DNA of 64,000 bases from an uncultured Sulfitobacter sp. (GCF_947500075.1 NZ_CANMQS010000012.1:1233-65232); one strand, 5' to 3'; positions 11,060-64,000 are shown, counted from the stretch's first letter. The notes: a model not told the origin generated them from the sequence alone. Translations and numbers: made by a program.

Positions 11060-11074
11060 AGATCCGCGATCCCG

Positions 11075-20620: not shown

Positions 20621-20707
20621 GACGCCATCCTTTGCGCGGGGCAGGCCAAAGTGCAACCCCGATCCAGCTGCGGATAGCACAGCAGAGATGGACGAAATAT
20701 GAAACGA

Positions 20708-26494: not shown

Positions 26495-26588
26495 GTGGCG
26501 GGTCCTTTTGTTTTGGGTGTCCGACGGGATGCTGTTGATCCGGGACGTCCGGGCGAGGTCGGAGCTATTTCGCAAATCGCGATCATGA

Positions 26589-28708: not shown

Positions 28709-28877
28709 AAGAGGCCTGCCATCATCCGCGCGGCAAGCGAAATACCGCTTTTGACTCTGGTCATTGGTCATGAGATGGCTTGCTGCGCCTGTGAAAGCAT
28801 GGTGGATTATGAGGCGGCAACAGGTGTTCTTAGGCCCAGTCCAGAGTGTACGTGACCAATAAGAAGGTGTGTAGAAA

Positions 28878-29753: not shown

Positions 29754-29771
29754 CGCCCTGCGTGGTATCAC

Positions 29772-38686: not shown

Positions 38687-41600
38687 CTATTTCAGCAATG
38701 AGGTCAGTTTGGACACAAATCCATTCGCCCCAGCGAGCCAGTTCACTGCACCAGAGCTGCCAGCGCCTTCAGATTCGCTGACTTCAATGGGGGCGCCAAC
38801 GCTGCCATCGTCATCCGCGTCACCGATTGCGGACAGGCTCCGTGCCGTGTCGGGATCAACGAACTGGCCGGTCACATCGTCAAAGACGAGGGTGGCAGGC
38901 GCATCAAAGCGTGTGCCTGTGTCCAGCGTTTCGTTCATCACATGTGACGGATCGAAGCCGATCAGGTGATCGTAGCCCAGTGTATGGCCCAACTCATGCG
39001 TCAGGGTAGACAGGATATCCATCCGGCCTTCCGCATCCGAGCCGTCCACCGCACGCAGGGTGCCTGCATTGTCAGCGACAAAGCCTGCCTCCTCAGCCGG
39101 ACGGACATCGACGAACCAGCCGTGATCAGCCGCGTTGACATCCACCAAAATGGTGTTGCCCTGCGCTGCTGCCAGTGCCTGACCCTGAAGATTTGCCACA
39201 CGGATTTCGACGTCACGCAAGGTTGCGATCTGTTCGTCGTCCAGATGACCGCTTTCTTCCCACAGTTCCTTTGCCGCTTCGAGGACTTCGCGGGCCTCAT
39301 CAAGGGTCACCCGTGCATCAGACACACCATCCGCATGGGTGGAGGCCGTCAGCATCACCATTTCCTCTGGGCATTTCACCGGTGCCGGGATGGTTGCAAT
39401 GAAGGGGTTCAGCTTGCCACGGATGGCGTTGTTGCTGTTCTCCCTCACAACCAGATCGGGCCGGTCTGCGGCAGCGATAAATTCTGCCAGCATGGCCTGA
39501 ACCAGTGTGTCACGTTCGGACTGCGGCAGGTTGTTGCCCGCGATGAAGTCGTTGCCGATGCCGCGGACGAAGTCTTCGCCGTTGCCACCCACAAGCGTAT
39601 CGCGACCCGCGCCACCTTCGACACGGTCCGACCCGTTTTCACCAAAGAGCAGATCACCCGGCTGCGAAGCTGAGCCCGGCTCACCGAAGAAGCCGCCACC
39701 CAGAACACGGTCGCTGCCGCCCTCGCCGCTGGCAAGGTCGATACCGTTGGACAGGTACAGGTTGTCGTTGCCGCCGCCACCAAGCGCCACGTGACGCCAC
39801 AGGGTGTCTTCGTCGGCACCTGGGATCACGAAGTCACGCGACCCGTTGGTGCTGGCGATCAGACCCATCCAGATGATGTCGTGACCTCCGCCGCCGTGGG
39901 CAAAGTCGTGTCCGCCGCCGGTGGCAATCTCATCGTTGCCGCGCAGACCCATGATCGCGTTGTTGCGGTCATTGGCCCAGATGTTGTCTGCAAACTCCGA
40001 CCCGACAACATCTTCGATATTGTCACGGGAGAACAACCGCACAGATCCGTCGGCATCGCCAAGGATGACGTCATCGCTATAGGCCTGAACCCCGATGTCC
40101 TGCAATTCAAGGGTGATACCCGTGTGGAAATTGCTGAAGTCGAGCACATCGCCGGTGTCGTTGGTCAGGCCATCGGGGATCTGTGCCCCGCCGCCATCAC
40201 CATCAGGATCAATGGAAGCCGGGAATGTCCCGCTTTCGATGATCATGTCGGAGCCAAGGCGGCTGCCGGCAAAGACGTAGTTGTCGTCGCCGATCCCACC
40301 ATAGGAGATGTCATCACCGCGACCGCCTTCGATGACGTCGCCACCGCCGATTGTCACATCCGTCAGCTTCAGACCCGTGACTGAGAAAGGATCGAAGTTT
40401 GGATGATCCTTGTTATCCGCCGGGAAGGTCTTGTTCAGGTCAGGTGTGCCGAGCTGGACAACTTCACCAGCGAACAGGCGAACCTGCGCATGATCACCGA
40501 CAGTGATATCATCCCCATCTTCACCATGCAGGAAGTCAGCACCATCACCACCCACGATCACGTCACCGTCCAATCCACCAAAGATCTGGTCGGAGGAGTT
40601 CACAAGGCCGAGCGCTTCGGAGTTCATCTCGTAGGTCACGCGGTCCAGCACACGGATCTGACCCTGGTCACCCAGCACGCGATCACTGTCGAAGTCACCT
40701 TGTGGAACGATGTTGTCCTTGTCGCTACCGCTCACGATTTGCAGCGCTGCAAGAGCAGGCATGTTGCGCCCGTCCTGTCCCGCCAGACGCAGTGAGAAGC
40801 CATCGCCAACGATGTCTTTGAAGACAAAGACGTTCGCCCGCAGGAACGGATCGCTGCCATCGCTGGTGACGAGCTCCCGATTAAACGCGAGGCCCCGTGG
40901 GTTCAGGATGGAATGCACGACACCATTTGCGTCAATCAACTCGATATCCACATCGAACCGCTCCGGGCGGAACTGCATGTCGATATAGAGGTAGACGTCA
41001 TAGGCATTTCCTGCACCGACCAACCCGTCAACACCGGTCAGGTCTGCACCTTGTACGCGGGCGCTGTTTTCGCGCATGTAGCCGTTGTACAGGCGACCCA
41101 GTTGGGTATCAGGGTTGATGGCAGAACTGTCACGGATCTGACCCACATGTGGGAAGCTCGAATCCAGTGCCCGACCAATCAGGAGGCTCACACCTTCCGA
41201 AGAGGTGAAACGTTCTGCTTCCTGACCTTTGGGACCGTTTTCGTCATCCAGACCATCCGCAGGATCAAAGAAGTCACCCAAGGTCCGGTTGTCGAGGTTC
41301 AGCCAGTTATCCGAAGCGACATAGCCTGTCGTTCCTTCAACAAAAGCCTCATCCACGGTCGATGACAGGTTGAACCCAAGCGACGTGATGTCAGGCGTTT
41401 CACCGTGCAGCGCGTCATCCACGCCATTGTGCACGCCGGTGTCACCGACATGGATGCAATCGTCGCCCTGACCGCCGATCACCATATCCTCACCGTTGCC
41501 GGTGATGATGATGTCGTTGAAGCTGAAGACTTCGGACGTGGTCTGGGTGCGCATATCCCGCAGCTCGCCCAGGTCGCCACCTTCTGGTGTGACGGTCCGT

Positions 41601-44600
41601 TCGGTCAGGGTGAATGTCGCGCGGCCATTGTCGCCAAAGACGGCATCATAGTCGGTCGCGCCCAGATCGGCATCGCCGGATGTATCGATGTAGTCATTGC
41701 CGGTCCCACCGAACACCACATCATCGCCGCCGCCAGTGAAGATGGCATCGTTGCCGCCAACTTCGATATCCACCGTCTCTGCCCGGTCAACAGGCAGGGA
41801 TTTGCCCACGATCTGAAGGCCCGCCAGGTTTGGACGGGTCGCAAACAGCGCGCCGGGAGGTGCCGTGACTTCAATCACCAGACGCCCGTCGGTCAGGCCG
41901 GATACAGCGACGTAGTTCCCGATTGTCGGATTGTTCACATCAGTGGATGTGGCCTGAATGTACTGGCCATCAAAGTGGGTGCCACGTGGATCAGCGATGT
42001 AGATCGGATCATCCGACCCGATACGTGCAACCCGTGTCCCCAGCCCGTCAGGCGAGTTGTCATTGTCAGCATCCATGTAGAGATAGACGTCATACTCGGA
42101 ATAGTACTGATCCAGCCCCTCGATCACGACCTCGATGGTCGAACGCTTGGCTGTGAAGATATACCCTTCGAACAGACGCTTGTCGTTGTCCTGACGTGGG
42201 TCGATCTCACGGTGTGCGTCGAAGCGCGCGGGATATTGACCGAAGATGCGGTTCTCGAGGTAATCCGCCTCTGACTTGAACGCTTCCTCGGCGAAGTCGT
42301 AGTCCTCAGGATCATAGCCGAAGCCGTCACTGAAATCATCGTCAAGGTAGGCTGGGACATCATCTGTCTTCACCCGCCATCCGATGGTCAGACCGGCAAT
42401 ATCAATGCCATTCTCATCAGTGATGAATTCACCCGCTTCGTTGCCAATCAGGCCCGATGGTGTGGTCAGGTTGTTCCAGTTGCCGCTGCGCGGTGCTGGC
42501 AGACCGTTGGTCGAGACACTGTCGTTTGTCCCTGCAACACCAATCACAGTCGCCCGACCCGGACGGCTGTCGAAGGAGAAGTTCAGATGTGTGAACTCTT
42601 CACCGCTCTGGTCTTCTGCCGAAGGCGCATCGAAGGTCTCGCTGCCGTTCAGGGTCAGGCGACCATTGTCACCAAAGACCACGTCGCGCACGTTCTGAAG
42701 TGTTCCGGTTTCGATGAAGTCATCACCGGCACCGCCCATGATCACATCTTCACCAACACCACCAAAGATCGCATCCTGGCCGCCGTTGTCGGAACCCACA
42801 CCGATAATCTCGGTGACGGTGTCAAAGTCGGTGGTCTGGATCTTCTGCAACAACTCTGGCGGCAGATTTGGATCCTCAACGGTCTGGATCACGATACCAT
42901 GATCCCCGAAGATGATGTCACGGAACGCGCCTTCTGGGGCGGTTGGGCCACCATCAATGCTGCCGGGTCCATCGCCAAACAGGACGTCATTGCCGGCAAC
43001 CAGATTATCGCGCACCGGCGATGGGTTTGGCTGCAATGTGGTGCCGTCAGAAGGCACATTCGGATTCACCGTTGGCAGTGGGCTTTGGTCGTCCACAGCG
43101 ATCAGCAGGGCGCGTGTCAGGATATCGACGTTCACGCCGCTGTCGCCATAGATGTGATCGGTGCCACGCTGGCCAAGGATGATGTCATCCCCTGAACCAC
43201 CCGCAAGGTGATCGCCTGCCTGGCTGCCGATGATCAGGTCGTTACCTGCCCCACCATAAGCCGTGATGCCCACGCTTGGCAGATCGGCTGTTGCCACATC
43301 CGCAAAGAGTGCGCTCGCGTCAATGATGTCGTTACCGGCGTAGTCGAATGGATTGGCCAATGGCATCACCCATTCGTCGTCCTCATTGTCGCCATCGGGC
43401 AGCAGTGGGAACGGATCGAATGGCTTTTCACCGAAGTCATAGCCAAGTACGGAGTAAGGCTCACCGGCGTACCAGTTGCCGTCCTGACTTGTGTCACCGT
43501 AGATGACCAGCGGGCTGTCAGGCCCTGCACCGCCCAAGACTTCGAACGTGTCGCCACCAATCAGGATGCCGCCATCAATCCGCGGATTGAAGCCCGAGAC
43601 CGTCACCAGACCTTCGATCTGGATGCCGATTGTCTCGCTCGTCAGCAGCATGGTGCCGCCGTCGATGGAGGCCACGGTGGATGTGCCCGGCAGACCTTCG
43701 ATGGTCACTTCCTGACCCACGAAGAAGCCAAGCTCTTCCCAATCGCCTTCGATGTTGAGTTCAAGGATACCTTCGCCCTTGTCACAGCAATCGATGTCGA
43801 TCTCGACCTGCGTCTCGACCCGCTCGGCCTTGGCCACGTGGATCTTCGCATCGTCCAGATTGCCCGTGGTGGTCAGTGGACCACCGTCGAGGATCAGGGT
43901 GGAGCCATCGCCCCAGTTGCCAAAGGCATCCACAGGCTCAAGGCTTGGATCAGCATCCACGATGTCGAGGATCAGACGCGTACTGTCTTCACCCTCAAGC
44001 TGGATGTAGTCACCCACCTGGAACTTGTCGCCCGCCCAGTCGAGACCGTCAAAGCGGGTCAACTCGATCGTGTCGCCTTCTTCGTTGGAGCCGAACAGAT
44101 CAATGCAGAGCTCAAGCGGCATGTTGCCACCACCGTGCAGGACGGTCAGACCGCCATGCGGACCTTGGACAGACAATTCCATCTCGACGACGGAGGTGCC
44201 GACGAAATCGGTGTTCTCAAGCACCAGCGTGTCGCCATCGTCTTCGATGCCGATCAGACGCACGGATTGCACACCCGCATCGGTCTTGATCTGCACCAGA
44301 TGACCAACGAGGAAGTTATCATCTTCCCAATCGCCGCCATCGGAGCGTGTCACACGGGTCTCTGTACCTGTTGTCGCCACGGCGAAGGTGCCGATGGTTT
44401 CAACCAGCGCATCCGTGGCAACCACGGTGATCTCGCCTGCAAGAACAGGCAGTGGATCACCTGACAACACCAGAATGGAGTTGTCGTTGGGGTCCTGACC
44501 CTCTGGCGTGACCGCATCGTCGATGCTTTCCACGGTCCACTGACCGGTCTGGCCTTCGATGGTCACGGTCTGGCCTGCGAGGAAGCCAAGACCCAGCCAA

Positions 44601-56600: not shown

Positions 56601-59600
56601 AAGGTGTCGCCATCCGCAAGATTGCGGCCATTGGCCGTGACCGAGACGGACTCCGAGCTGGTCACATCGCCGTTCATTTCGGAGCGCACGCCACCTGCAA
56701 CGGTCGCTTCGCTCAACATCACTGTGCCAGCGGCCAGAAGACCCCCTGCCCCGCCGCGCGCTTGTGCTTTGGCGCGGTTGAATTCGGGCTCAACGGATGG
56801 TGCGAAGATATCGATGGAGATGGCATCCAGTGCCGCCTCATTGGCTGTAATGCTGGTGTGTGCTGCATCAACGGTGATCGCGTCACCGCTCATCGACACG
56901 CCGGAACCTACAACCGCTTCGATGTCGGCAGTATCCAGAATGCGCGCTGTGGCTTTGGCACCATTTCCGGCAAGCCCAAAGGACACGTTGGCAATCAATG
57001 CATCAGCAACCGCATCGTTGGAGCCATCTGCGCTGATGTCGATGTTGCTGTCCGCAGAGAGCGTTGTATTGCCCGCCGCACCCGCTTGAATGCGCCCGCC
57101 AATCTCGGCCGTTGGCGCTGCAACGCCGACGGCTGCAACGCCGCTGACGCTGATACCGAGGGTCTTGGCATCCGCATCCCGCTCACCGGAGGCATCGATG
57201 GTGATGTCGCCCTGCGTCGCTGTGACAGATGTGCCCGAGCCTTGCGGCGTTTCCCCATCACGTGTGCCCGCAAAAGCTTCGGTGACGGAATTGATGTTGG
57301 CGTTGGCAAGGCTCACGTCGATGCCCACCAGACCGCTGAAGTTGGCGCTGATGTTCTGGGCGGTCGCGGACTCCGTGCTTTCCGCGTCAATGTTCACTTC
57401 GGTCGCACTGACCGTCGCATCTTCACCCACATAGGCCAGCGTGCGGCCTGCGACCGTCGCATCCGTGAGTGTCAGGCCGATGGTGATACCTAACGAGCCA
57501 CCCATGCTCAGCGGGGTTGCCGCGGTGGTCAGCGTCGCATCGCTGGTCACGTTCAGCGCGCCGCTTGTCAGGGTCAGGTTTGTGGCGCCGGGTGCCGGGT
57601 TCTGGTTCGCGATGGTCACTTCGGCGTTCGGGTTGAACGCAAAGTTGGGCGAACCGGACCGGATCAGGCTGTGGCTGCTGCCCGTACCCTGGCTCCGGAA
57701 GAAGATGTCGTTCTTGTAGACCGCAACATCACCGATGTCGTTGCCATCCTCATCCAGCACATCTTCCAACGTCCATTCTGCAAGGCGAATGGTGCCATCA
57801 TCATCGGTCAGGACATAATAGACCTGTCCATCTTCCAGACCTTCGATGGCATCGCCACCCCCGCTGGAATAGGTCACCAGCTCTCCTTCCGTGAAGGCGG
57901 TATTGCCCACGTAGATGGAGTTGCTGGCAACATCCACGACGTCGCGCGCCTGACGGGTGCGATCGCCCACATAGGATTCCGTTGTCCGGTCTACTGCGCC
58001 GTTGATCACCGAGACGCCAACCGCGAGGCCGCCGCTCAACACAACGTTGGTGCCATCTGGCGTTGCTGTCGCGATGGAATCTGCCGTCACATCCATGTTG
58101 GCGGCATTGACTGTCGTCGCGCCGTCCACGAAGCCACGTGTGGCTCCGCCCAGTGTTGCATCCGCGATCAGCACGGAGACAGCAGCCCCGAGGCTTGCCG
58201 CAACCCCCAGGGATTCCGCTTCTGCGGTATGGTTGCTGTCCGCATCCACCAGAACCTCGTCGCCAATTGCAGTCAGCGACGCGTTGCGCGCATAGGCTTC
58301 GACAGTGCTGTCCAGATTGGTCTGGCTGACCGCACCAGCACCAGCCGCACCAAAGGCGGCAGCAATGGCAGCAACGCTGGCCGTCGCATTCACAGTCTGG
58401 GTTGCATCTGCATCAATAGTGATCGCACCGGAACCCGGTGCACCATTTGCGGTCACGCTGCTGTCTGACACATGCGCGCTGATCTCGTTCTTGACGTCAT
58501 TGAACGCAAGACCGACACCCACTGCAACACCCACAAGACCACCGGCGGTCGCGACGGAGACCACGGATGTGGACACATCGGTAGTGTCGTTTGCCCGTAC
58601 CGTGACCGCACCGGAGGCAGTCACATCAGACCCGCTATCGATGCTTGCATTGATGCTGGCGTTCATGTCGTTGCGTCCAAGCGCACCGGAACCCGCCGCT
58701 GCACCACCAATGCCAACGGCAAGGGCAACAGCGACCGCAGCCGGCGTTGCCACGATGGTGGATGTGGCATCCGCATCCACCGTCACATCGCCTGCTTCAG
58801 CTTCGACCACGGAATTCGAAATCCGCGCATTCGTGCTGCCGCTATGATCATTGGTCGCCTGCGCCGCCGAGACGGAGAAGGCCACAGCCACAAGACCCGC
58901 AGCAACGGAAACCGCCGCCGCATCTGCATCAGCGTCAACCATCAGGTTCTCAGTCGCGTCGACCAGAACGAAGGTGGCGGCCCGGACGGCCTGCATATCG
59001 GCAGCATCAGAGTTTTCAATCGCTGCAGTAATTTCACTGTTCACGGTGTTCGACGTAACTGCCGCAGCAACAGAGCCGGAAATCCCGACCGTACCGCCAC
59101 CAATCGCAATGGCCACGCCGATGCCATCCACTTCGACCTCGGCGACAGAATCCGCAGTCACCGTCACATTGCCTTCGGCATCTACGTCGCTATCGGAAAT
59201 GATCGCCCGGACAGCCGCACCATATGTATTTGATGCCGTTGCAATTGAAACGCTGATCCCGATCCCGACCGTGCCGCTGACGGCAACCGCAAGGCTGACC
59301 GCAACGGAATCGGTGTCTATGATCATCTGATCATGCGCACGCACCAGCACGGAGCCTTCAGCGTCAATCACACTGTCGGCACCGATCAAGGCAACCGTGG
59401 TGGAGGACACATCCGTGTCGGCAATCGACAAACCAAAGGCGGCAGAAATGGACGCTGTGCCAGACGCGGAGATGGCCACAGCCACACCGACCGCAAGCGT
59501 ATCAAGATCCGCATCAGACGTCGCCTGCACGCGCAGCACGCTGCTGCCTTCGTGGGTGATCCCACTGCCCAGGATCGCAGCCTGAGTGGTCATCTGGTAT

Positions 59601-62600
59601 TCGGTCTTTGAGATCGCAACCGCACCTGCGAGGGAGATCGCAGCCGCACCGCTCACCGCAATTGCAGCAGCAGCCGCAACAGTCAGCGTGTCCACATCCG
59701 CGCGGTCCAGCGCATCGACGGTCACTTCGTTGGCAGTAACCGTCGCATTCTCGATCTCTGCCGTGACCGAACCGGTCACCTTGGCAGTCGCCGTCGCACC
59801 TGCACCGGCACCGGCCAGCGCGAAGCTGCCACTGCCTGCCACTGACAGCGCCGCGGAGATGGAGGTGACATTGATATCCTGACGGTCTGAGCCGAACACA
59901 TTCGCCGCGTCAACATCAACCGCACCGGAGGCATCGACTTCCGCCCCGTTGCCTATCTTGGCCAGAACGGCATGGGCCATATCAACCTCAGCCACGCCAA
60001 CCGCAACAGCCAGTGAGATTGCTGCGTTGGAGCTGATGGAAACAGCCGCCGCAACGGAAACCGCTGTGGTTGTCACAGTGTTGGTGCCATAGGCTTCGAC
60101 ATCGACGCTTGTTGCGCCGGTAATGGAACCACCCATGATGCTGGCTTCTGTGATGCCCGCAATCTGCGTGCCGGGATCGAAGGAGAATTCATCCGCACCT
60201 TCATCGTAGGCGTAGCCGCCGACATTCGTGCGTACAACCGCAGCCGCAACACCAATCGCTGCATTGGACCCCACCGCAACGCTGACAGACGCCGCAACTG
60301 CAACCGTGTTGATATCCGTATCACTGCGCGCAAAGACATTGACGATACCCGGATTGGTGATCGTGCTGTTGGAAATCCGCGCCAGTGTCGCGGTCTGCGC
60401 CGCGATGGAGGCCAGCGTGACAGAGACGCTCAGGCTCACCGCAGCACCGGAAGAGATACCCGCGCTGATCGCTGCTGCAACACCGACCGTATCAATATCA
60501 GCCTTGTCATCTGCCGTGACGGTCACGTTGCCCACATTCGTCAGCGTAGAGCCCGCAATCTCAGCCGACACCGCATTCGTCATGATGCTGTTTGCCACAA
60601 CAACCGACCCTGCGCCGCTGATCCCGACGCTACCTGCACTTGCAGAGACAGAGATGCTCGCCGCGACACCGACGGTCTGCACTTTCGTTGTGTTCTCAGC
60701 CGACACATCCACATTGCCGCCCGCGTCAATGGCCGAGCCATCCTCGATCGCGGCACGCACGGTTGTGCCCACACTGTTGTCCACGGCGACAACCGCCACT
60801 GCAACGGAGATACCCGCACCACCGCTGGACACACCCAACGAAAGGGCTGCCGCCACACCCGTTGATGTGACTTGAGTCGCGTCGGTTGCATCCACGCTCA
60901 CACCGCTGAGGCTGGTGACATCCGAACCGTCGATGCGCGCAGTCACCACGTTGTCCAGATCGTTGTTGATCCCGACACCCGCGCCAGCACCACCAATGGA
61001 CACACCACCGGAACTGGCTGAGACGGAAACGCTTGCCGCAACAGCCACGACCTTGACCTGACCGGAGGCCGCAGCCGCCACGTCAACGTCATTGCCGTCA
61101 ACGGTCGAATCCTCGATCAGCGCCTCGGTTCTGCCGGTGCTTTCATTCACTGCCGTTGTCTCGGCCACGGTGAGGGAGACCGTCGCCCCACCCGAGCTTG
61201 CTGCGACACCGACCGCAGCCGCCACAACCGTGGCACCCATCTTGGGTGCGATGGTTTCCGTCTGCGCCCACAGATCAATGGCCGACCCACCCGATGGCGT
61301 CAGGCTATGACCGCCCGCCAGACCGGCAGAGGTCAGATTGATCGCAATACCGAGGTTCGCGTTGGCCAGGCTGTCGGCCAGCTTGATCCGGCCGTCTTTG
61401 CCCTCGATCACGAAGTAGTCAATGGGATCACCCATGTCATCGACAGGCTCAAGCCCGCCGATGTCTGGCAAACCGCCATTGTCATAGGTCACGATGTCGC
61501 CGGTCGTCAGACCCGCCGCATCACCCACATAGATGCTATCATCCGCAGTATCGACAATCGTGATCTCACGGCCCTTGCCGCCGGGATCACCGATGTAGAC
61601 CGTCTCGGTCAGATCAGCTTCGGTCGCCCCGGTGCCGCCATCTGTCGCGGTAAACTTGGACAGGCTGTGCTGGCTGCCGACACTGTTGGAAGTCAGATCA
61701 ATCGCAGTCCCGTTTGCGGCATTCACCGCTGAGGTTGCGAGCCGGATCTTTCCATCCTCCGCTTCGATCACATAGTAGATGTCATTGTTCTGGCTGGTGA
61801 TTTCCTCATCCGCATTGCGGCTCAGCGGTGCGTCGGTCAGACCACCGATGTTGAAGGACGCACGCTCTGCCGGATCTTCAGAAGAACTGCCGTTGCGGTA
61901 AATCACCGCGTCGCCTGTGCTGAACCCTGCGTCTTCGCCGACGTAGATGGTGTTCGCTGTCGGATCGACAATGTCTTCCCGCAGGCGGGTGTTGATCGTT
62001 GTACCTGTGCCGTCCTGCTCAACCGCATCGACGGTCACCGCGCCTTCGGCATCCACGGTGCTGTCTTGGATCAGCGCCTGCGCTTCACCGGTGAAGGTGT
62101 TGCGCGCATTGGCACCGGCAAAATTCACGTTGATGGCCGTACCGCTGGAGGCAGAGACGGAAACCGACGCTGCAATCGTCTTGACCAGCAGTGTGGTGCC
62201 GGAAACGACGTCGATGTCCACAAACTGCGGTGTCACAAGGGTCGAATTCACGACGCCTGACGTGACCGATGTGCCCACTTCATTGAAGGACAGTGCAACC
62301 GACACGGAGCCGGAGAAGGACAGGCTGCCGCCACTCACGCCAACTGAGATTGAAGCGGAGATGTTCAGGGCGTCGACCACCGCAGTGTTGCGCGCCAGGA
62401 TGGTCGCGCTTTGCGCCTCAACCCCCTGCCCGTCCGCCACATCACTGTCGCGGATCAATGCTTCGGCACTGCCATTCACAGTGTTGGAGGCGAGCGCAAG
62501 AACCACGGATACACCAGCCGCGATGCTGCTGTTGGATGCAGAAACCGCAATGCTTGCCGCGATGCCAATCACGTCGACCCGACCTGCGTTCAAGGCTGTC

Positions 62601-64000
62601 AGGGTCAGTGCCCCGCCGGCATTCAGCGTGCTGTCATCAATCAACGCGCTTGTCGCGGTAGTGATGGTGTTTTCCGCAACCGAAATGACGATGTCCAATG
62701 CCACGGCGGCACCAGATCCGGTGCTTGCTGTGACAGAGGCAGAGGCCGCGATAACCTTGGCATCAATCGTCGCATTGTTTGTCGCGTCGATATTCGCCGC
62801 ACCTGTCAGCGTGACATCAGCGCCACCCAGAAGACCGGCGTTGATCTCGTTGCCGATTGTGTTGAAGGCAAACGCGCCCGTACCGGCGCCGCCAAGGCTC
62901 ATGCTGCCGCTGGAAATGGTGACCGCGACCGATGCCGCGACAGAGACGACGTTGATCTCAGACGTCGAGCTCGCCTGCGCATCAAGGCTGGCCGCCTGAA
63001 TTGCGCCGCCGGTGATGGTGGCATCCGTCCGGTTCTGGATGTCGTTATAGGCCACAGAGGCATTGATCGACACACCAACAGAGGTGCTGTTGCTGTTCGT
63101 GACCGAAATTTTGGCCGAGACAAGGTCTGCGGAAATCTCCGTATCATCCTGCGCAAAGAGCATGATCGCGCCGGTGGACGTCACATCCGCGCCATTCATC
63201 GTAGCGTCGACATCGGTGTCCATCTCGTTCACCGCAACTGCGGCTTGCGCGCCGAGGTTCAGGCTGTTGCCCCCAGACGAGTTGGAGATGCTCACCCCGG
63301 CCATGACCGTGACCACGTCAATCGTGGCGTCCGACCGCGCATCAAGCGCGACACTGTCCGCCGTCACTTCAACCCCATCAATTGTGGCGCGTGTGATGTT
63401 GCTGGCCTGATCATCGGTGAATGTCAGATCCATCGGATCGTTGGTGCCGTCATCTGCGGGCCGCATGTCAGGATCTTCTTCGCCCAGCACGATTGTGCCG
63501 TCACCCAGACCAATCCGGTTTACGGCAACGGTTGCACCCAGCGTACCGCTGACAGAGCTGCCGGAGGAGGAGTTGGAGAAGCCGATTTGCGCGCCAATCG
63601 CCGTGGCATCAATATCAGCCGAGTTTGTTGCCGTGACATTAACCGCGCCGCCTGCGTCCACGCTGGCATCCGCATCGCCTGCGCCATTCAGCGCCGCGAT
63701 GGTATCGCTGTCGATCTCGTTGACGGCAATCGCGCCAGTGACCTGCGCGCTGAGAGCGGAACCGTCAGACGAATTCGACAGGGTCACAGAAGCCCCGATC
63801 GCATGGGTCTCAATATCCGCATCATTTGCGGCCGTCACATCAACCGCACCATCCGTATCAATGCTGCCACCGTCCATGCCAGCCTGCGTGATCAGGTTCA
63901 GATCGTTGAACGCACCACCAACGGCCACGCCAACGGCATTGCCGCCATTGGCGAGCGACAGGACACCTGCAACGCTGAGCGCGTCAATCTTGGCGTCGTT
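38687..64000 (-). CDS. giant repeat-rich RTX-type surface/secreted protein (partial; N-terminus beyond the window edge)
   Basis: A single open frame from the TAG stop at 38687-38689 through position 64000 (8437 codons). The 'M' at 63928 in the ORF track is an internal GTG. Architecture runs from repeats through RTX blocks to a metzincin module, as detailed in the findings. Confidence 0.9.
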   Translation of the reverse strand, partial: NDAKIDALSVAGVLSLANGGNAVGVAVGGAFNDLNLITQAGMDGGSIDTDGAVDVTAANDADIETHAIGASVTLSNSSDGSALSAQVTGAIAVNEIDSDTIAALNGAGDADASVDAGGAVNVTATNSADIDATAIGAQIGFSNSSSGSSVSGTLGATVAVNRIGLGDGTIVLGEEDPDMRPADDGTNDPMDLTFTDDQASNITRATIDGVEVTADSVALDARSDATIDVVTVMAGVSISNSSGGNSLNLGAQAAVAVNEMDTDVDATMNGADVTSTGAIMLFAQDDTEISADLVSAKISVTNSNSTSVGVSINASVAYNDIQNRTDATITGGAIQAASLDAQASSTSEINVVSVAASVAVTISSGSMSLGGAGTGAFAFNTIGNEINAGLLGGADVTLTGAANIDATNNATIDAKVIAASASVTASTGSGAAVALDIVISVAENTITTATSALIDDSTLNAGGALTLTALNAGRVDVIGIAASIAVSASNSSIAAGVSVVLALASNTVNGSAEALIRDSDVADGQGVEAQSATILARNTAVVDALNISASISVGVSGGSLSFSGSVSVALSFNEVGTSVTSGVVNSTLVTPQFVDIDVVSGTTLLVKTIAASVSVSASSGTAINVNFAGANARNTFTGEAQALIQDSTVDAEGAVTVDAVEQDGTGTTINTRLREDIVDPTANTIYVGEDAGFSTGDAVIYRNGSSSEDPAERASFNIGGLTDAPLSRNADEEITSQNNDIYYVIEAEDGKIRLATSAVNAANGTAIDLTSNSVGSQHSLSKFTATDGGTGATEADLTETVYIGDPGGKGREITIVDTADDSIYVGDAAGLTTGDIVTYDNGGLPDIGGLEPVDDMGDPIDYFVIEGKDGRIKLADSLANANLGIAINLTSAGLAGGHSLTPSGGSAIDLWAQTETIAPKMGATVVAAAVGVAASSGGATVSLTVAETTAVNESTGRTEALIEDSTVDGNDVDVAAAASGQVKVVAVAASVSVSASSGGVSIGGAGAGVGINNDLDNVVTARIDGSDVTSLSGVSVDATDATQVTSTGVAAALSLGVSSGGAGISVAVAVVAVDNSVGTTVRAAIEDGSAIDAGGNVDVSAENTTKVQTVGVAASISVSASAGSVGISGAGSVVVANSIMTNAVSAEIAGSTLTNVGNVTVTADDKADIDTVGVAAAISAGISSGAAVSLSVSVTLASIAAQTATLARISNSTITNPGIVNVFARSDTDINTVAVAASVSVAVGSNAAIGVAAAVVRTNVGGYAYDEGADEFSFDPGTQIAGITEASIMGGSITGATSVDVEAYGTNTVTTTAVSVAAAVSISSNAAISLAVAVGVAEVDMAHAVLAKIGNGAEVDASGAVDVDAANVFGSDRQDINVTSISAALSVAGSGSFALAGAGAGATATAKVTGSVTAEIENATVTANEVTVDALDRADVDTLTVAAAAAIAVSGAAAISLAGAVAISKTEYQMTTQAAILGSGITHEGSSVLRVQATSDADLDTLAVGVAVAISASGTASISAAFGLSIADTDVSSTTVALIGADSVIDAEGSVLVRAHDQMIIDTDSVAVSLAVAVSGTVGIGISVSIATASNTYGAAVRAIISDSDVDAEGNVTVTADSVAEVEVDGIGVAIAIGGGTVGISGSVAAAVTSNTVNSEITAAIENSDAADMQAVRAATFVLVDATENLMVDADADAAAVSVAAGLVAVAFSVSAAQATNDHSGSTNARISNSVVEAEAGDVTVDADATSTIVATPAAVAVALAVGIGGAAAGSGALGRNDMNASINASIDSGSDVTASGAVTVRANDTTDVSTSVVSVATAGGLVGVAVGVGLAFNDVKNEISAHVSDSSVTANGAPGSGAITIDADATQTVNATASVAAIAAAFGAAGAGAVSQTNLDSTVEAYARNASLTAIGDEVLVDADSNHTAEAESLGVAASLGAAVSVLIADATLGGATRGFVDGATTVNAANMDVTADSIATATPDGTNVVLSGGLAVGVSVINGAVDRTTESYVGDRTRQARDVVDVASNSIYVGNTAFTEGELVTYSSGGGDAIEGLEDGQVYYVLTDDDGTIRLAEWTLEDVLDEDGNDIGDVAVYKNDIFFRSQGTGSSHSLIRSGSPNFAFNPNAEVTIANQNPAPGATNLTLTSGALNVTSDATLTTAATPLSMGGSLGITIGLTLTDATVAGRTLAYVGEDATVSATEVNIDAESTESATAQNISANFSGLVGIDVSLANANINSVTEAFAGTRDGETPQGSGTSVTATQGDITIDASGERDADAKTLGISVSGVAAVGVAAPTAEIGGRIQAGAAGNTTLSADSNIDISADGSNDAVADALIANVSFGLAGNGAKATARILDTADIEAVVGSGVSMSGDAITVDAAHTSITANEAALDAISIDIFAPSVEPEFNRAKAQARGGAGGLLAAGTVMLSEATVAGGVRSEMNGDVTSSESVSVTANGRNLADGDTLAVAIGSFAAAGTGTVSEITNQADIVAKVGAAANITTTGALLVTATGDNDAKTRSDAGSGGLVGVAGAVLSAKVGGAVIAEMNGDVNDANAVTVTATGNNNADAEALTIAVGLAGGAGAGATAEVTSAADVEAKVGSTAVLTTPNAPVSVTATGDNNARSKANGGAASLSLSIAAMLPTAKVGGAVLSEFSGQMAADNAASSLTVNARGENTANAEAIAVAVGLVAGGAGANAVAEVTTDADITARLGAAAMVRTTGNVTVDARTTGLGNYAKGSAKGGGGGAFAGAAVFLSEARVGGSVIAEVAGDVLESANITVNADGRNYAETETLAVSGSFGLSGSGTGASVEILGDDSSSGNLVEGANVVARVTDTAQLSTDGALDVTATGDNDAITNSDVGAGGVVGIAAAELKAKVGGAVKATMDGDVTDASAVTVDADGDNKADAKALAIAIGLAGGAGASAIAEISSAADVVASVGSAAVLTVAGAAVTVNATGRNEADAVSNGGTGGIIAITVMLPTATINGGVTAAFDGTLTDGDTDAASLDIDAIGSNDAQATAKLLSVSLLGGSGAQGTATIGSEADIVARIGGSASVAADVVTVDATHGVRAGATNSDGGAAQAQNRAISKVESFNGALLASISVVRTTSTVDGAVRAQMNGDITDGGDVSVAADSDNYAWARTETLGLGAISFGSAGSSATVGNNARTEATAANGSSAAISGNLGFVATSDSDAIAFSDAKTGGLAAVSTTKPVASVGAKTRAVVDIDVTGAGGINVRATADNDAKATSNAVAGGLVGVNDSNAQADITSEAVTEAEIGSNADINSPAADIVVLAEANNDAIAETDSTSGGLLSIGAASPKATVSSITRANILGQVRDGDGAGAASISVNARGSDAAVATVISTGGGLLEVGSSNSEARSGGSTNATVGKSAGKIIATGNIEVRALGLTDADATTRSTGIGGLSIGTFGGAAVSTSAVNVTVEGGSTLQSLAGLVSIAADHNVPDGIASEGAFNAAQVNGATDTILFDLPHGLTTNNSVTYSANGNTPLSQLTDGADYTVLVPTANGIQLGAATQTVGGFTAVDTAANTINFPWRHNLTDGMIVTYFSSGTPIGGLVDGEDYRVKVISEDVIKLQDNDVPPAIVNTTANNVSGNTVTATNTFNDGDLITYTAEAEIDAFSSLFVDVAVAGGEVVLDGMENTTDVPGNNNIIVEDGSPLNVGDQVIYNLIDNDTDPGTNPVAIGGLTDGSIYRVATKDGDSIQLKRNDRLLNLSVDFIRDGNSGNVTAKRLDGGNWGNNGFGLTAGEQVDITMSAAANGTYTIVSISGDEMVLSGASGIDATIAEIALEGIQAAEDGMGNPTGPNDRLVRSDGRSWLDDGFTNGTQITVSGAGFANGTYTVLNASATTLELTVRNQINDGTDGSAQVERANTVATFDQGIIALSPNKSAGAAEDFHTLQRVQDQQLNLTNGADYYVVNSDGGSFQLSETEGGTAINLNPNGYNAGDHKFELEGLDLTSPGSGEHRVVIDIEPGAGTHMFDLTSAANFSGAPSGDRAVTSSASGGGGGAIDVKVANATTNVTVNGNLTVENGAHIEGNEVDITTDIRGTSLAVATYRGGGGVSVGDANATANLTIISDLDIGENDGGADTAGALAPTIIANGDAATGLAGDTSGNANIEGRVQAKTEATSSTNTGGLGAGADSTAKSTTNVTNTVDIDGLVKASEELTAAGRTFVDGDVYARADGSGFGADASANDTGGKGVTINATTRVTLENEAVLEANDVDIVSSNEVNGRADAFAIARAFGADSDARGDVTLTGASHVILDTGSQILGNSEVDISARYDKLDLRADPRAELYAVGGDTDGRANVTANNIEAKVFGRDESFVRTAELNVNSLVDRDRVAAQASHRKSGIDFGSVSNNRSERIEREIFWESTVILLSSPNPILRVNAGGIVVQKVNVTLAGGQEVGDPIGVGDDIVINDILNTGSGRATFTANEPGAGNPAGQIWGNAGLFDLHRTWDFVLIENQSDRNVVVNRISPVNPGSLGTNPTNVDPADIEIRVAGVPGPVNAPANNVSLAENTDSGVTFEFDIVNTFTRTVIDILNLNASTGMGANIAPSNIILNGLIDNPIGITTVLNERGNILAGANAVIRGNEVYLDATGGSIGLLDGTTREAIVVELVRYQDRDTTVFTENMTANATQDVVLDLSFFDRSSATLGDNLPVTVNITEITAGDDVSIVVNDSREGNDLGTVGNVSVADRGTTPEVGFFSKHFRPTDNTPDVALDRILRAFGTGAIGMAMAPRVNSVYNFLNIRSGDDMDIGHVDGDAVGGEQRLYETTRLGGSTYGLSIIPDVPTTTIDFVINGDVDWAGGMSEDDIEQIFVTTNGMITYNEIAGDLQAGHINSTAGDVVLNSSAKITDADNLPTVDVTAANITLNSGVNTMLPASLNPTAPTVSGIGDADNFLEINTAKGGTGMLNAWDSNSVVGSPTVATTAMGIYLDEIAGDMPVGVVASDANVSLRTVDGSVADAPENNLTNVYGQSVDIDANGGGIGAFDNDLEIDSQFGIADNTSTTAGGADVALEATGDIYVEEADGGLRLVLAHSFTGDINLLVRETAELDEDLIIVDAGSARFAENNDRGPSNQADADRIINNGAIFAEQGGIVLRVGDDITFDDNADVLAAENIAIFGDFLNFDFGHGADIILRGRIIAGADVALGSESGGDPMGTATPTFTAPTFTTTVTGNSDVDDIQFGDATGISGTTTQGQDGYIFLGSKTRVEAGGNEDNITVYYLQDTATVTSPAQLDVLTALGHENAEHTLRLDGQQGTDTFNVYTLGSNGPDQRNYIINVLDTGAQNDGSDELFIHGNETEDDIFLLRGSNFIPNETADRPGYVALVHGDEDTYRDTLQGNEPFAEVQRIGYDTSINGRMTVLGKGGDDSFFTDDTTVITTLDGGEGADNFQIGQIYGLKRNEVDGNLLPQDAFPNVIATTRGFLSAGTNSPLLAQGGSGNDTFTVYSNQSELRLEGGDNDDTFTVRAFALALVDGSGDLILGDDGLPQPIIGANGFSIDRPVDVRTGGGDDEVRYNVNAPVSIEGGTGFDKVVILGTEFADDFVITDEGILGAGLNVRYDTIEVIEVDGLEGDDEFFVQSTAFGVAYRVIGGLGSDTINVAGDVTEDIVTRELEGASGAVNHLLSSDDVAYDGLLVDGFDYNVPREETGLVVIEETDGFTGITEGPGATATDSYTVRLAEQLLAGQVVYVTVSGARSTQEEQDGTLFNDGLPGGVGDTFWLSSTAPADANDPQAVEFTRPVNVDNVIENKENRSLVLRFDHTNWDQAQSVHLFAVDDLRAEGDQRVVTQHTVIATGTGAEVEAYDGIAVRNVEVDLRDNDTPGVQIFEIEKDSYSPVDNTFVEDQDTTVIEGDAVTGLSDQLLVRLSKAPELGESIVVKLALGEEADKQILLTSADIGAFEGADGFLRVTFTTANWDTGVVVDVEARDDARIEDTKGAVIMVERDDATTQADYIFPNLRSDPGFLDVTVLDNDTAGALVQESGGSTLLAPADDYTIRLTGTPTADVDVALLNDGLANVVSVNGVNVTPADYVSVGALRPVQQFQGQVVAENAGGVGTISRDGVAQGFGSFVDEGFTAGQQIRVEGLGTGFDGDYFIASVTAQTITLTEAFTGAGQATAEAAILFDLARIGIYEGTVTSAFDADPEFGGPQLVRADGTGWLADGFLEGQWIRVTDLNNAANEIEMKIELIRGDNDTNDEKLQVTDFTAALPAWLTSGSTDVRVERIAAVATFTDADYWVQQTIGLEADSFFDTPITREGSKVFPASPHLLSNIRGPLQVEGGVTGADRSLQNGLKLPGEKDDFLFAIGAQAPESQQIDVLNIFNDSSVENGTGVMTETTLTGFGMAEELDFGPQSANEFGESTVVPGGISFGRITFGADGFQTADTTSTIEVVNVMLGQGNDTMTVEGTLNPANFVDTTGEFTITPNGTDGGTISREGIDWLGLGFLAGQTVTIEGQTGQWTVESIDDAVTPEGQDPNDNSILVLSGDPLPVLAGEITVVATDALVETIGTFAVATTGTETRVTRSDGGDWEDDNFLVGHLVQIKTDAGVQSVRLIGIEDDGDTLVLENTDFVGTSVVEMELSVQGPHGGLTVLHGGGNMPLELCIDLFGSNEEGDTIELTRFDGLDWAGDKFQVGDYIQLEGEDSTRLILDIVDADPSLEPVDAFGNWGDGSTLILDGGPLTTTGNLDDAKIHVAKAERVETQVEIDIDCCDKGEGILELNIEGDWEELGFFVGQEVTIEGLPGTSTVASIDGGTMLLTSETIGIQIEGLVTVSGFNPRIDGGILIGGDTFEVLGGAGPDSPLVIYGDTSQDGNWYAGEPYSVLGYDFGEKPFDPFPLLPDGDNEDDEWVMPLANPFDYAGNDIIDASALFADVATADLPSVGITAYGGAGNDLIIGSQAGDHLAGGSGDDIILGQRGTDHIYGDSGVNVDILTRALLIAVDDQSPLPTVNPNVPSDGTTLQPNPSPVRDNLVAGNDVLFGDGPGSIDGGPTAPEGAFRDIIFGDHGIVIQTVEDPNLPPELLQKIQTTDFDTVTEIIGVGSDNGGQDAIFGGVGEDVIMGGAGDDFIETGTLQNVRDVVFGDNGRLTLNGSETFDAPSAEDQSGEEFTHLNFSFDSRPGRATVIGVAGTNDSVSTNGLPAPRSGNWNNLTTPSGLIGNEAGEFITDENGIDIAGLTIGWRVKTDDVPAYLDDDFSDGFGYDPEDYDFAEEAFKSEADYLENRIFGQYPARFDAHREIDPRQDNDKRLFEGYIFTAKRSTIEVVIEGLDQYYSEYDVYLYMDADNDNSPDGLGTRVARIGSDDPIYIADPRGTHFDGQYIQATSTDVNNPTIGNYVAVSGLTDGRLVIEVTAPPGALFATRPNLAGLQIVGKSLPVDRAETVDIEVGGNDAIFTGGGDDVVFGGTGNDYIDTSGDADLGATDYDAVFGDNGRATFTLTERTVTPEGGDLGELRDMRTQTTSEVFSFNDIIITGNGEDMVIGGQGDDCIHVGDTGVHNGVDDALHGETPDITSLGFNLSSTVDEAFVEGTTGYVASDNWLNLDNRTLGDFFDPADGLDDENGPKGQEAERFTSSEGVSLLIGRALDSSFPHVGQIRDSSAINPDTQLGRLYNGYMRENSARVQGADLTGVDGLVGAGNAYDVYLYIDMQFRPERFDVDIELIDANGVVHSILNPRGLAFNRELVTSDGSDPFLRANVFVFKDIVGDGFSLRLAGQDGRNMPALAALQIVSGSDKDNIVPQGDFDSDRVLGDQGQIRVLDRVTYEMNSEALGLVNSSDQIFGGLDGDVIVGGDGADFLHGEDGDDITVGDHAQVRLFAGEVVQLGTPDLNKTFPADNKDHPNFDPFSVTGLKLTDVTIGGGDVIEGGRGDDISYGGIGDDNYVFAGSRLGSDMIIESGTFPASIDPDGDGGGAQIPDGLTNDTGDVLDFSNFHTGITLELQDIGVQAYSDDVILGDADGSVRLFSRDNIEDVVGSEFADNIWANDRNNAIMGLRGNDEIATGGGHDFAHGGGGHDIIWMGLIASTNGSRDFVIPGADEDTLWRHVALGGGGNDNLYLSNGIDLASGEGGSDRVLGGGFFGEPGSASQPGDLLFGENGSDRVEGGAGRDTLVGGNGEDFVRGIGNDFIAGNNLPQSERDTLVQAMLAEFIAAADRPDLVVRENSNNAIRGKLNPFIATIPAPVKCPEEMVMLTASTHADGVSDARVTLDEAREVLEAAKELWEESGHLDDEQIATLRDVEIRVANLQGQALAAAQGNTILVDVNAADHGWFVDVRPAEEAGFVADNAGTLRAVDGSDAEGRMDILSTLTHELGHTLGYDHLIGFDPSHVMNETLDTGTRFDAPATLVFDDVTGQFVDPDTARSLSAIGDADDDGSVGAPIEVSESEGAGSSGAVNWLAGANGFVSKLTSLLK
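38690..39360 (-). other. C-terminal metzincin-like zinc metalloprotease module of the giant protein
   Basis: HELGHTLGYDH (HExxHxxGxxH; HELGH at 38984-38998) followed by SHVMNE as a possible Met-turn. It is preceded by ANLQGQALAAAQGNTILVDVNAADHGWFVD. Confidence 0.65.
39520..40370 (-). repeat. RTX GGxGxDxUx nonapeptide blocks of the giant protein
   Basis: GGRGDDISYGGIGDDNYVF, GGGGNDNLYL, GEGGSDRVLGG, GGAGRDTLVGGNGEDFVRG in the translation. Coordinates are approximate. Confidence 0.75.
40730..41320 (-). repeat. lectin-like module, copy 2 (paralogous to 41800-42500)
   Basis: Begins SDNWLNLDNR, has the core AYDVYLYIDMQF and ends MPALAALQIVSG. Same landmarks as copy 1. Confidence 0.55.
41800..42500 (-). 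repeat. lectin-like module, copy 1
   Basis: Begins RSGNWNNLTT, has the core EYDVYLYMDADN and ends RPNLAGLQIVG. Confidence 0.55.
53600..57500 (-). repeat. at least nine tandem ~108-aa coding repeats in the giant protein
   Basis: Recurring A.VGGAV.AEMNGDV...AVTVTATG.N.ADAEAL.IAVGLAGGAGA.A.AEV.S.ADV.AKVGS.A.L. Unit starts lie near 56720, 56395, 56050, 55700 and 55375. Copies are diverged (about 50-65% identity by eye). Confidence 0.7.
57960..64000 (-). repeat. ~64-aa Ala/Ser/Val/Gly/Thr-rich tandem coding repeats (continuing past the window edge), interrupted at about 61290-62000 by two ~100-aa insert modules
   Basis: The period was counted on VAVAASVSVSASSGGVSIGGAGAGVGINNDLDNVVTARIDGSDVTSLSGVSVDATDATQVTSTG and its neighbouring copies. 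Confidence 0.7.

Follow-up and report, generated by a model that had tools for sequence, protein, structure and literature searches.

Export of megadalton proteins across two membranes is understood only for type 1 secretion systems driven by an ATP-binding cassette (ABC) transporter, which together with a membrane fusion protein (MFP) and a TolC-type channel exports giant RTX adhesins of the LapA, SiiE and MpIBP kind. A gene module comprising a secondary SecA_DEAD protein and M50/HlyD, GAF/HlyD and HlyD/Biotin_lipoyl proteins was delineated in silico by Kamneva, Poudel & Ward (PLoS One, 2015; PMC4452313), who proposed a type-1-related function, with SecA_DEAD as the ATPase and M50 as a possible pore or channel, and called its biological role ‘completely unknown’. 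SapC appears in that study only in a supplementary cluster table, where giant proteins are absent, and its main text is silent on SapC, RTX repeats, giant proteins and cargo. SecA-like domains have also been described as embedded parts of giant proteins of Omnitrophota and Actinobacteria, for which self-export was proposed (West-Roberts et al., 2023; bioRxiv 10.1101/2023.11.21.568195), and sapC genes occur both in the type 1-related sapCDEF locus of Campylobacter fetus and, with tolC, on the flanks of the giant genes Cag_663 and Cag_665 of Chlorochromatium (bioRxiv 10.64898/2026.03.19.712371). Here we analyse 64,000 nt of DNA from an uncultured Sulfitobacter sp. (GCF_947500075.1 NZ_CANMQS010000012.1:1233-65232; hereafter ‘the window’), in which a giant gene is followed directly, on the same strand, by five genes of the module type. 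On balance, we consider it probable that the product of this gene is an acidic protein of very large size that binds calcium outside the cell, as a fibre or at the surface, and that it is the dedicated cargo of a five-gene, type-1-like exporter devoid of an ABC component. The giant gene and the elements that follow it are, in the direction of transcription:

38690..64000, minus strand: giant open reading frame (ORF) of 8,437 stop-free codons, with its 5′ end beyond the window; the C-terminal part of a protein of at least 9,094 residues
38640..38667, minus strand: GC-rich hairpin with a 10-bp stem and a weak T-tract (TTCTTCTTTG), 20 nt past the giant stop codon and ahead of the putative exporter genes
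36542..38533, minus strand: GAF-HlyD protein, 663 residues; GAF domain at residues 230-365, moderately hydrophobic segment at 400-418, HlyD domain at 420-630
34390..36537, minus strand: fusion of PqqD-like, site-2 protease (M50) and HlyD domains, 715 residues; PqqD/RRE-like domain at residues 37-100, HlyD domain at 464-634
33496..34281, minus strand: SapC family protein, 261 residues (PF07277, E = 4.9e-71), overlapping the start of the SecA-like gene by 8 nt
31485..33503, minus strand: SecA paralog, 672 residues (ATG at 33503), with the first nucleotide-binding domain (NBD1), the preprotein cross-linking domain and NBD2
30676..31488, minus strand: short periplasmic adaptor of the HlyD/RND type, 270 residues, with an N-terminal signal-like sequence, overlapping the stop of the SecA-like gene by 4 nt

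The GAF-HlyD gene begins 153 nt past the giant stop codon, the two genes after it follow at distances of 4 and 108 nt, and the last two overlap their predecessors by 8 and 4 nt, so that the giant gene and the five genes look like an operon in both order and spacing. An initial annotation of this DNA, made from the sequence alone, had stated that no cognate type 1 secretion genes flank the 3′ end of the giant gene; this was wrong, given that a conserved type-1-related module starts at that very place. The same annotation had assigned the giant protein to the LapA/SiiE/MpIBP class of RTX adhesins, and part of the comparison stands. Specifically, the protein is giant, modular, repetitive, very acidic and poor in cysteine, carries RTX repeats near its C-terminus and is encoded alongside HlyD-type adaptors, with a TolC-type outlet likely (a TolC gene lies within the corresponding cluster of Thalassospira). 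By contrast, the locus has no adjacent ABC transporter, a SecA-derived ATPase in its stead, and three HlyD-type proteins, two of them fused to GAF or to a site-2 protease; BIg/cadherin beads were not found in the protein, and its relatives begin with a LEPR-XLL leader instead of a retention module. No family of the lapD/lapG kind turned up among the window ORFs scanned. With regard to the set of ABC transporter, MFP and TolC that defines type 1 secretion, three MFP-type domains are present and there is no HlyB-type ABC gene beside the giant gene; the proposed system would thus work like type 1 and yet lack the ABC transporter by which that class is defined.

The closest match is the module of Kamneva et al., with which the locus shares the four core genes (a truncated SecA paralog and adjacent M50+HlyD, GAF+HlyD and HlyD/Biotin_lipoyl proteins), their order and their taxonomic spread, as well as the SapC of the supplementary table; their proposal of SecA_DEAD in place of the ABC ATPase and of M50 as the channel is followed here too. 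It differs in that the module is tied here to an adjacent giant LEPR-XLL gene, for whose product N- and C-terminal features are described below. No later work tying the module to giant genes was found in the literature searched, relative to which two things appear to be new: that the module is systematically paired with giant LEPR-XLL cargo, and the terminal signals of that cargo.

The 25-kb frame is a genuine gene for a giant protein. It ends in a TAG at 38687-38689, continues past the end of the window and takes up 39.5% of it, which confirms the initial call of a protein of more than 8,437 residues that covers about 40% of the window with no start codon in view. The two other frames of the same strand contain 306 and 383 stop codons against none in this one (probability of zero stops in 8,437 codons, computed from base composition, ~1e-127), and GC content by codon position (0.64/0.48/0.67) is typical of coding sequence. 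A contig assembled independently from a public read set (Logan; L002) carries the same locus at 99.6% protein identity over 1,604 residues and extends the gene upstream to at least 9,094 residues; the gene begins at base 2 of that contig and is therefore incomplete there too. The upstream sequence that the initial annotation had asked for was thus partly recovered, the N-terminus still not being reached, and a metagenome scan with the first 300 visible residues gave no match. Because the near-identical contig extends the gene beyond it, the GTG at 63928, called as the start by an ORF tool, was rejected. Complete relatives in complete genomes and plasmids measure 9,000-13,100 residues, and the full-length protein here probably has 10,000-13,000.

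It is exceedingly improbable that this long frame is an assembly artefact or a decaying pseudogene. The gene is indeed repetitive and of a kind that breaks short-read assemblies, and the near-identical Logan contig itself ends within it; against this stand the absence of stops, the coding-like codon-position GC, the independent assembly and the intact orthologues. Furthermore, Tandem Repeats Finder detected no tandem repeats at the DNA level in the giant gene except one 52-nt array, and the protein repeats are divergent (30-50% amino acid identity between copies), which makes assembly collapse unlikely. The visible 8,437 residues carry a net charge of -827 and only five cysteines, and transmembrane segments were not found in them; such an acidic, cysteine-poor make-up is expected for a protein that folds outside the cell.

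The components of the module retain their catalytic motifs. The 715-residue fusion has about eight hydrophobic segments and shows the two signatures of site-2 proteases (HExxH in one transmembrane segment, NxxPxxxxDG in another), which all of four orthologues preserve unchanged as HELGH and NPLLRFDG. The Peptidase_M50 model scores 28 bits on this protein against a cut-off of 27.2 bits, its best NCBIfam match is daptide_HExxH (1e-46, under the cut-off of that model), the PqqD domain is recognized in M50-HlyD proteins at E values of 7e-6 to 9e-4, and the best match among species-representative genomes has 65% identity. Public annotation names these proteins variously ‘PqqD family peptide modification chaperone’, ‘site-2 protease family protein’, ‘peptidase M50’ and ‘biotin/lipoyl-binding protein’. 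The GAF-HlyD protein joins a long cytoplasmic N-terminal region with the GAF domain to a periplasmic adaptor domain through one hydrophobic segment. No relative of SapC with a solved structure was found. Exact-match look-ups gave no record for the GAF-HlyD and SapC proteins of the window and, for its RmlC, just a 1.3-kb read contig. Like the Campylobacter fetus and Chlorochromatium sap loci, the window encodes a SapC family protein together with putative export genes of a large surface protein; in C. fetus, sapD, sapE and sapF are an ordinary set of ABC transporter, MFP and outer-membrane protein.

The SecA paralog aligns to residues 24-603 of the ~800 of Bacillus subtilis SecA and ends within the first scaffold helix. 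It thus comprises the motor and the preprotein cross-linking domain, with Walker A (MATGEGKS), DEAD-like (VDEADS) and arginine-finger motifs intact, and is devoid of the wing domain, the two-helix finger and the C-terminal tail. Its names in public annotation are ‘prepilin peptidase’, ‘DEAD/DEAH box helicase’, ‘preprotein translocase subunit SecA’ and ‘hypothetical’. The giants of West-Roberts et al. contain a comparable divergent unit (SecA DEAD plus preprotein-binding domain, lacking scaffold and wing) and are also predicted to form long antiparallel-beta structures. In their case, however, the unit is fused inside a giant protein with many transmembrane helices and type 2-like neighbours, whereas here it is a separate 672-residue gene product within an HlyD/M50 module.

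The order of a PqqD-like domain followed by an HExxH intramembrane protease also recalls the leader-processing machinery of ribosomally synthesized and post-translationally modified peptides (RiPPs), such as the daptide and YydH/LiaK proteases. The module might accordingly mature or export a small RiPP-like peptide, with the giant gene as no more than a frequent neighbour: the nearest matches of its M50 domain are the proteases that mature daptides and epipeptides, and a PqqD/RRE-like domain is a hallmark of leader-peptide recognition. We regard this as very improbable. In contrast to the RiPP systems, the protease is fused to a periplasmic HlyD domain and the likely client is a megadalton protein; the gaps within the module amount to only 4-108 nt, no conserved small ORF, short precursor or modification enzyme is found in the cluster, and conservation extends to no partner other than the giant gene.

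The association between the module and giant genes extends well beyond this locus. When an alignment of M50-HlyD proteins was used to scan a single genome of each species, it yielded 80 loci that span Alpha-, Beta-, Gamma- and Deltaproteobacteria, Planctomycetota, Bacteroidota and Methylomirabilia and that all show the same gene order, with GAF-HlyD in 77 and the short HlyD adaptor in 62. Among the 44 well-flanked loci (at least 6 kb upstream and at least 5 kb downstream), 33 have an adjacent giant ORF, defined as a same-strand ORF of at least 2,000 residues running off the fetched 10-kb flank (27 upstream of the module, 6 downstream). The association follows SapC: an adjacent giant accompanies 28 of 29 modules with SapC (29 of 29 when L040, missed by an overlap filter, is included) and 5 of 15 modules without it. 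All-against-all clustering of the ORFs of the loci revealed no other conserved neighbour, and an ABC ATPase (Walker-A plus LSGGQ pattern) was present in only one of the 80 loci, on the opposite strand.

Annotated loci show the same arrangement. On a plasmid of Pseudosulfitobacter sp. DSM 107133, a 12,918-residue ‘LEPR-XLL domain-containing protein’ is followed by HlyD, site-2 protease, SapC, ‘prepilin peptidase’ (the SecA paralog) and adaptor genes; in Pontibrevibacter and Alisedimentitalea, HlyD, M50-HlyD and SecA-like genes follow a LEPR-XLL protein of ~10,600 residues and a ‘calcium-binding protein’ of ~8,150 residues, respectively; and the LEPR-XLL protein of Thalassospira has 4,033 residues. 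Even three distant homologues of the SecA paralog each adjoin a giant gene, encoding 13,105 residues in a marine alphaproteobacterial genome, 9,642 in Bradyrhizobium sp. DOA9 and more than 10,227 in Marinobacterium, where the giant gene lies downstream.

Two further features of these loci deserve mention. SapC-less clusters (Pontibrevibacter, Thalassospira; L089, 17863-18144; L091, 17687-17983) encode a DUF3467 protein of ~95 residues between the giant and GAF-HlyD; this protein, for which no solved relative was found, possibly corresponds to cluster 5 (‘conserved hypothetical’) of Kamneva et al. Modules of the Burkholderiales type (L048, L050, L062, L063, L067, L070, L074 and L081) have neither SapC nor an adjacent giant, lie a few kb from hrpA and carry the short HlyD gene on the opposite strand; if they export any cargo, its gene must lie elsewhere. 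A 1,371-residue ORF beside them was considered as a smaller cargo and rejected, being the HrpA helicase.

The putative cargo proteins share features at both ends. At the N-terminus, a leader motif, [LI]EPRxL[LFMY]SA, follows a basic stretch and lies 20-105 residues from the ORF start in 13 of 13 downstream cargo ORFs with a visible N-terminus, as well as in the complete Sinorhizobium and Pseudosulfitobacter giants; a six-frame translation of the loci, 2.8 million residues in all, contains its strict form only 13 times. Complete relatives pass the NCBIfam model NF012209 ‘LEPR-8K’ at their N-termini (E = 1e-5 to 2e-8; 24 positions, 17-bit cut-off) and receive their name from it in the PGAP annotation pipeline, the model itself being a 24-residue motif with no function attached. 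The term LEPR-XLL occurs in the literature searched as single mentions, in neither titles nor abstracts. Many cargo N-termini begin with M-A/S-H/F-P-F (MAHPF, MAFPF or MSHPF) followed by a long basic stretch, a second conserved feature of the putative leader (L027, L030, L034, L039, L051, L071 and L088). Relatives with a homologous core and C-terminus (L087 and L088) pass the LEPR-8K model as well. Because the Sulfitobacter protein is homologous to the Pseudosulfitobacter and Sinorhizobium giants over the core and the C-terminal module, it very probably has the same leader and first domain, and very probably belongs to the LEPR-XLL family (LEPR-8K).

A basic leader conserved on the cargo is also what one would look for if the SecA paralog were an accessory, SecA2-like Sec ATPase that sends the giant N-terminus first through SecYEG into the periplasm, from where HlyD-type proteins and TolC would take over. 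Both the motor and the preprotein cross-linking domain are retained in the paralog, which obtains strong scores on SecA2 models, although under their cut-offs. Canonical SecA engages SecY and pushes the chain by means of the wing, the two-helix finger and the C-terminal tail. These SecY-coupling elements are absent from the paralog, which makes the route less likely; moreover, the conserved cluster includes neither SecY2 nor any other Sec gene, and the leaders of the relatives have no hydrophobic core typical of Sec signals. We therefore hold this explanation to be quite improbable.

The visible part of the giant protein divides into the following regions, listed from N- to C-terminus:

57971..64000, minus strand: stalk part 1 (residues 1-2010), ~30 copies of a unit of 61-63 residues rich in A, S, V, G and T
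53681..57418, minus strand: stalk part 2 (residues 2195-3440), repeats of ~107 residues, each of two half-units related to the 62-residue unit
42644..53359, minus strand: conserved core (residues ~3548-7119), mostly non-repetitive, with BLASTP homology to complete giants
39563..43255, minus strand: RTX nonapeptide blocks (residues 6916-7098, 7431-7517 and 7817-8146), HemolysinCabind family, GGxGxDxU pattern
38801..39385, minus strand: metzincin-like module (residues 8206-8400), with HELGHTLGYDH at residues 8335-8345 (window 38966-38998) followed by the candidate Met-turn SHVM
38690..38779, minus strand: extreme C-terminal tail (...AVNWLAGANGFVSKLTSLLK), a candidate secretion signal recognized in an alignment of 33 C-termini

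Ten overlapping 990-residue segments of the protein were scanned with Pfam (E ≤ 1), and the only matches in the whole visible protein were RTX repeats in the last ~1,500 residues and a sub-threshold Peptidase_M10. The RTX nonapeptides read in the initial annotation are present (HemolysinCabind, E = 1.4e-16, with three to five stretches per segment), and the GGxGxDxUx pattern has 16 matches between residues 5411 and 8138. The region between the RTX blocks (residues ~7130-7800) is lineage-specific and variable, being conserved only among the closest relatives, in loci L007, L008 and L015 and partly in L010 and L011; the two lectin-like modules that the annotation had placed there matched no Pfam family and no PDB sequence, and the label was abandoned.

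The metzincin-like module carries the HExxHxxGxxH zinc site and Met-turn of metzincins and aligns with the active-site helix and Met-turn of matrilysin. Peptidase_M10 matches it at E = 0.0018 (18.6 bits, under the 24-bit cut-off), and a family profile retrieved karilysin (1.2e-6) and matrix metalloproteinases from the PDB, in each case over only ~30 residues around the active-site helix. The metzincin proposed earlier thus has the exact HELGHTLGYDH and profile matches of ~1e-6; since these matches are confined to the zinc site, metzincin affiliation is likely and homology of the whole domain only possible. The module occurs in 26 of 27 giants located upstream of an exporter module and, at E ≤ 1e-3, in 5,358 representative proteins, often near the C-terminus of large proteins. 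The domain, carried by P0134, P0137 and P0142 among other representatives, is apparently unannotated; it is sometimes present in two to four copies per protein, and ~40% of its copies have no full HExxHxxGxxH. Over the last ~25 residues, related giants share the pattern W-x(2-6)-[RK]-x-G-L-L-x-R-L-x-x-L-F (the Pseudosulfitobacter giant ends in ...IAWSENNGLLKRLGSLFKK), and this conserved tail is a candidate secretion signal.

This C-terminal organization raises the question of whether the protein is a classical giant RTX adhesin exported C-terminus first by an ABC/MFP/TolC system encoded elsewhere, the module having only a regulatory, processing or quality-control role. RTX repeats, extreme acidity, a mere five cysteines and the conserved tail would all suit such a cargo, and only 64 kb of the genome is visible. 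In addition, the window encodes a second, canonical RTX protein (11075-14425, minus strand; 1,116 residues with 14 HemolysinCabind stretches, its N-terminal ~350 residues being without a family match), which ends in ...DSLTII, much like the C-termini of classical type 1 substrates; somewhere in the genome, therefore, a conventional system of this type is probably present. Nevertheless, there is no ABC transporter beside the giant gene here and one is nearby in only 1 of 80 related loci; the tight synteny that crosses phyla is with the ABC-less module; no BIg/cadherin beads were found; and relatives start with LEPR-XLL, not with a retention module. We consider the classical route unlikely.

Repeat periods were determined by cutting the protein into 120-residue pieces and comparing each with the whole. 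They amount to 61-63 residues over positions 1-1750, 106-108 over 2250-3400 and 65-67 at 3420-3730, and a hidden Markov model (HMM) of the basic unit finds 48 copies in residues 1-3440, the 107-residue repeats being double units of the same kind. Two pairs of modules were also matched by this comparison (residues 3721-3890 with 6061-6260, and 6421-6522 with 6753-6824). The repeats of ~64 and ~108 residues in the initial annotation are therefore real, with the shorter period refined, and so are its inserted YYV modules, which interrupt stalk part 1 at residues ~661-905 and ~2010-2110 (YYV..IRL pattern at 740, 861 and 2058). AlphaFold, given an alignment composed of other units of the same protein (four non-overlapping windows), produced a confident model of five 62-residue units (residues 964-1272, window 60185-61111; predicted local distance difference test (pLDDT) 87, predicted template modelling score (pTM) 0.81), in which each unit forms two antiparallel strands of 25-31 residues, a long beta-hairpin. 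A Foldseek search of this model against the PDB returned no analogue (best E = 0.11, TM ≤ 0.15). The view of the initial annotation that the repeats are not the usual Big/cadherin beads agrees with the absence of such families from the ten Pfam-scanned segments.

The core is 37-58% identical to the Pseudosulfitobacter giant and 40-45% identical to the Sinorhizobium giant by BLASTP and comprises YxV modules, a predicted all-beta, beta-helix-like segment, DNDT motifs and W..DGF modules; no Pfam family was detected in it at the same threshold. Homologues of residues 4350-5550 number only 11 in 5.8 billion proteins, and with these eleven AlphaFold gave an all-beta model of residues 4376-5275 (window 48176-50875; pLDDT 72, pTM 0.75). 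Its best PDB neighbours by Foldseek are beta-helical autotransporter passengers, EtpA, tailspikes and RsaA, none of them significant, and the beta-helix reading is for this reason only qualitative. The YYV, W..DGF and DNDT motifs of the initial annotation were all recovered where it had placed them; several of its family labels were not. YxV patterns occur at residues 3580 and 3709, the neighbouring beta-helix-like segments standing in the qualitative sense just given; four RTX-like nonapeptides at residues 5411-5619 fit the ‘degenerate RTX’ at 50-47 kb by pattern and go undetected by Pfam; DNDT is present at residues 5844 and 5997, with no match to Calx-beta or cadherin families; and four W..DGF modules are seen by pattern and paired by BLAST. 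The Big, cadherin, Calx-beta and lectin assignments were dropped, there being no Pfam match at E ≤ 1 and no PDB sequence match, a verdict that applies at the sequence level only.

Taken together, these observations suggest the following layout for the full-length protein, from N- to C-terminus: a basic leader with LEPRxLLSAD (seen in the relatives only), a long stalk, an all-beta core of ~3,500 residues, RTX blocks, a metzincin-like module and an amphipathic tail. The stalk, whose units in the window and in relatives measure 50-60 residues, is predicted to form long antiparallel beta-hairpins. We infer that this protein is exported by the five-gene module. It would be made as an unfolded acidic chain, which the truncated SecA, acting as a cytoplasmic ATPase, would grip in its preprotein clamp and push by ATP hydrolysis. 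A terminal signal would be recognized by the PqqD-like domain of the site-2 protease fusion, perhaps also by SapC and the GAF domain, which may serve as a gate or chaperone. The polytopic membrane domain of the site-2 protease could provide inner-membrane passage, signal cleavage or both, and the three HlyD-type periplasmic domains would bridge to a TolC-type channel encoded elsewhere. Once outside, calcium-dependent folding of the RTX blocks would prevent back-sliding and render movement irreversible, and trimming of the signal or release of the protein would fall to the site-2 protease, the metzincin-like module of the cargo, or both.

The direction of export can be argued both ways. The conserved tail and the RTX blocks, as in type 1 systems, argue for the C-terminus first; an N-terminus-first order is favoured by the conserved leader, by the pairing of PqqD and protease, which is typical of leader-peptide systems, and by the fact that SecA works from N to C. 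A bolder formulation, plausible though more doubtful than export by the module as such, is that the module represents a distinct, as yet unnamed class of double-membrane secretion for megadalton LEPR-XLL proteins, in which a SecA-derived motor replaces the ABC transporter, the LEPR leader is read by the PqqD-like domain and removed by the site-2 protease, and export proceeds perhaps N-terminus first and possibly co-translationally. If so, a 10,000-residue chain would not have to be completed before secretion starts.

Several points weigh against export of the giant protein by the module. No site-2 protease is known to serve as a channel for proteins. A classical type 1 system encoded elsewhere in the genome would suit the RTX repeats and the C-terminal tail equally well, and no TolC gene is present in the 64-kb window. 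The LEPR motif does not occur within the window, since the N-terminus of the giant gene lies outside, and the LEPR-XLL membership of this gene rests on the homology of its core and C-terminus to complete relatives. Eleven of the 44 well-flanked loci have no adjacent giant, mostly in Burkholderiales beside hrpA. The hairpin between the giant gene and the module is terminator-like; by its match to the consensus, it is possibly a partial terminator or an RNA-stabilizing element, and it resembles the hlyA-hlyB terminator. Finally, most module genes of Methylobacterium extorquens AM1 were reported to be barely expressed in exponential growth (PMC4452313).

The locus lies amid a large surface-glycan gene set (1205-4677 and 4723-7218, plus strand; 10217-11059, minus strand; 14562-20680; 27542-30626), which comprises rmlC/B/D/A, several glycosyltransferases (one of 1,217 residues with WsaF-like domains), UDP-glucose dehydrogenase, a small ABC ATPase and a membrane protein of the ABC-2 type, together with at least three sulfotransferase-like ORFs. 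In L003 and L006, too, the module has glycosyltransferase, methyltransferase or UDP-glucose dehydrogenase genes in its neighbourhood. This gene content hints at a surface or matrix role for the giant protein, possibly in glycosylated form or in conjunction with a sulfated polysaccharide. As candidates for the missing type 1 transporter, the 218-residue ABC ATPase (9560-10216) and the ABC-2 protein (7208-8020) were rejected; neither is an HlyB-type protein, neither is encoded next to the giant gene, and both sit in a sugar-nucleotide and glycosyltransferase cluster, from which we infer a part in polysaccharide export. Elsewhere, a ChrR-type cupin and a flavin amine oxidase share one 522-residue ORF (25007-26575, minus strand), whereas L002 has two genes at the corresponding place (17024-18738; 222 and 348 residues), a discrepancy that could reflect a frameshift or a difference in gene calling. 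At the window start, 48-1136 (plus strand) encodes a 362-residue DUF2793 protein, a family that occurs in tail-fibre-like proteins of alphaproteobacterial gene transfer agents and phages.

What emerges is a cut-down SecA that in many phyla is genetically tied to genes for giant cargo, and an intramembrane protease where a transporter would be expected. On the practical side, giant genes of this kind fragment short-read assemblies, and ‘prepilin peptidase’ and ‘DEAD/DEAH box helicase’ are the names under which the SecA paralogs currently appear. Should the link prove functional, it would represent a new way to energize a tripartite exporter, would supply a client for a module whose role has been open since 2015, and would attach a function to a motif, LEPR-XLL, which annotation pipelines flag already. 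It would also connect these loci with the SecA-like domains inside the largest known bacterial proteins. Since culturable carriers exist, the idea is directly testable.

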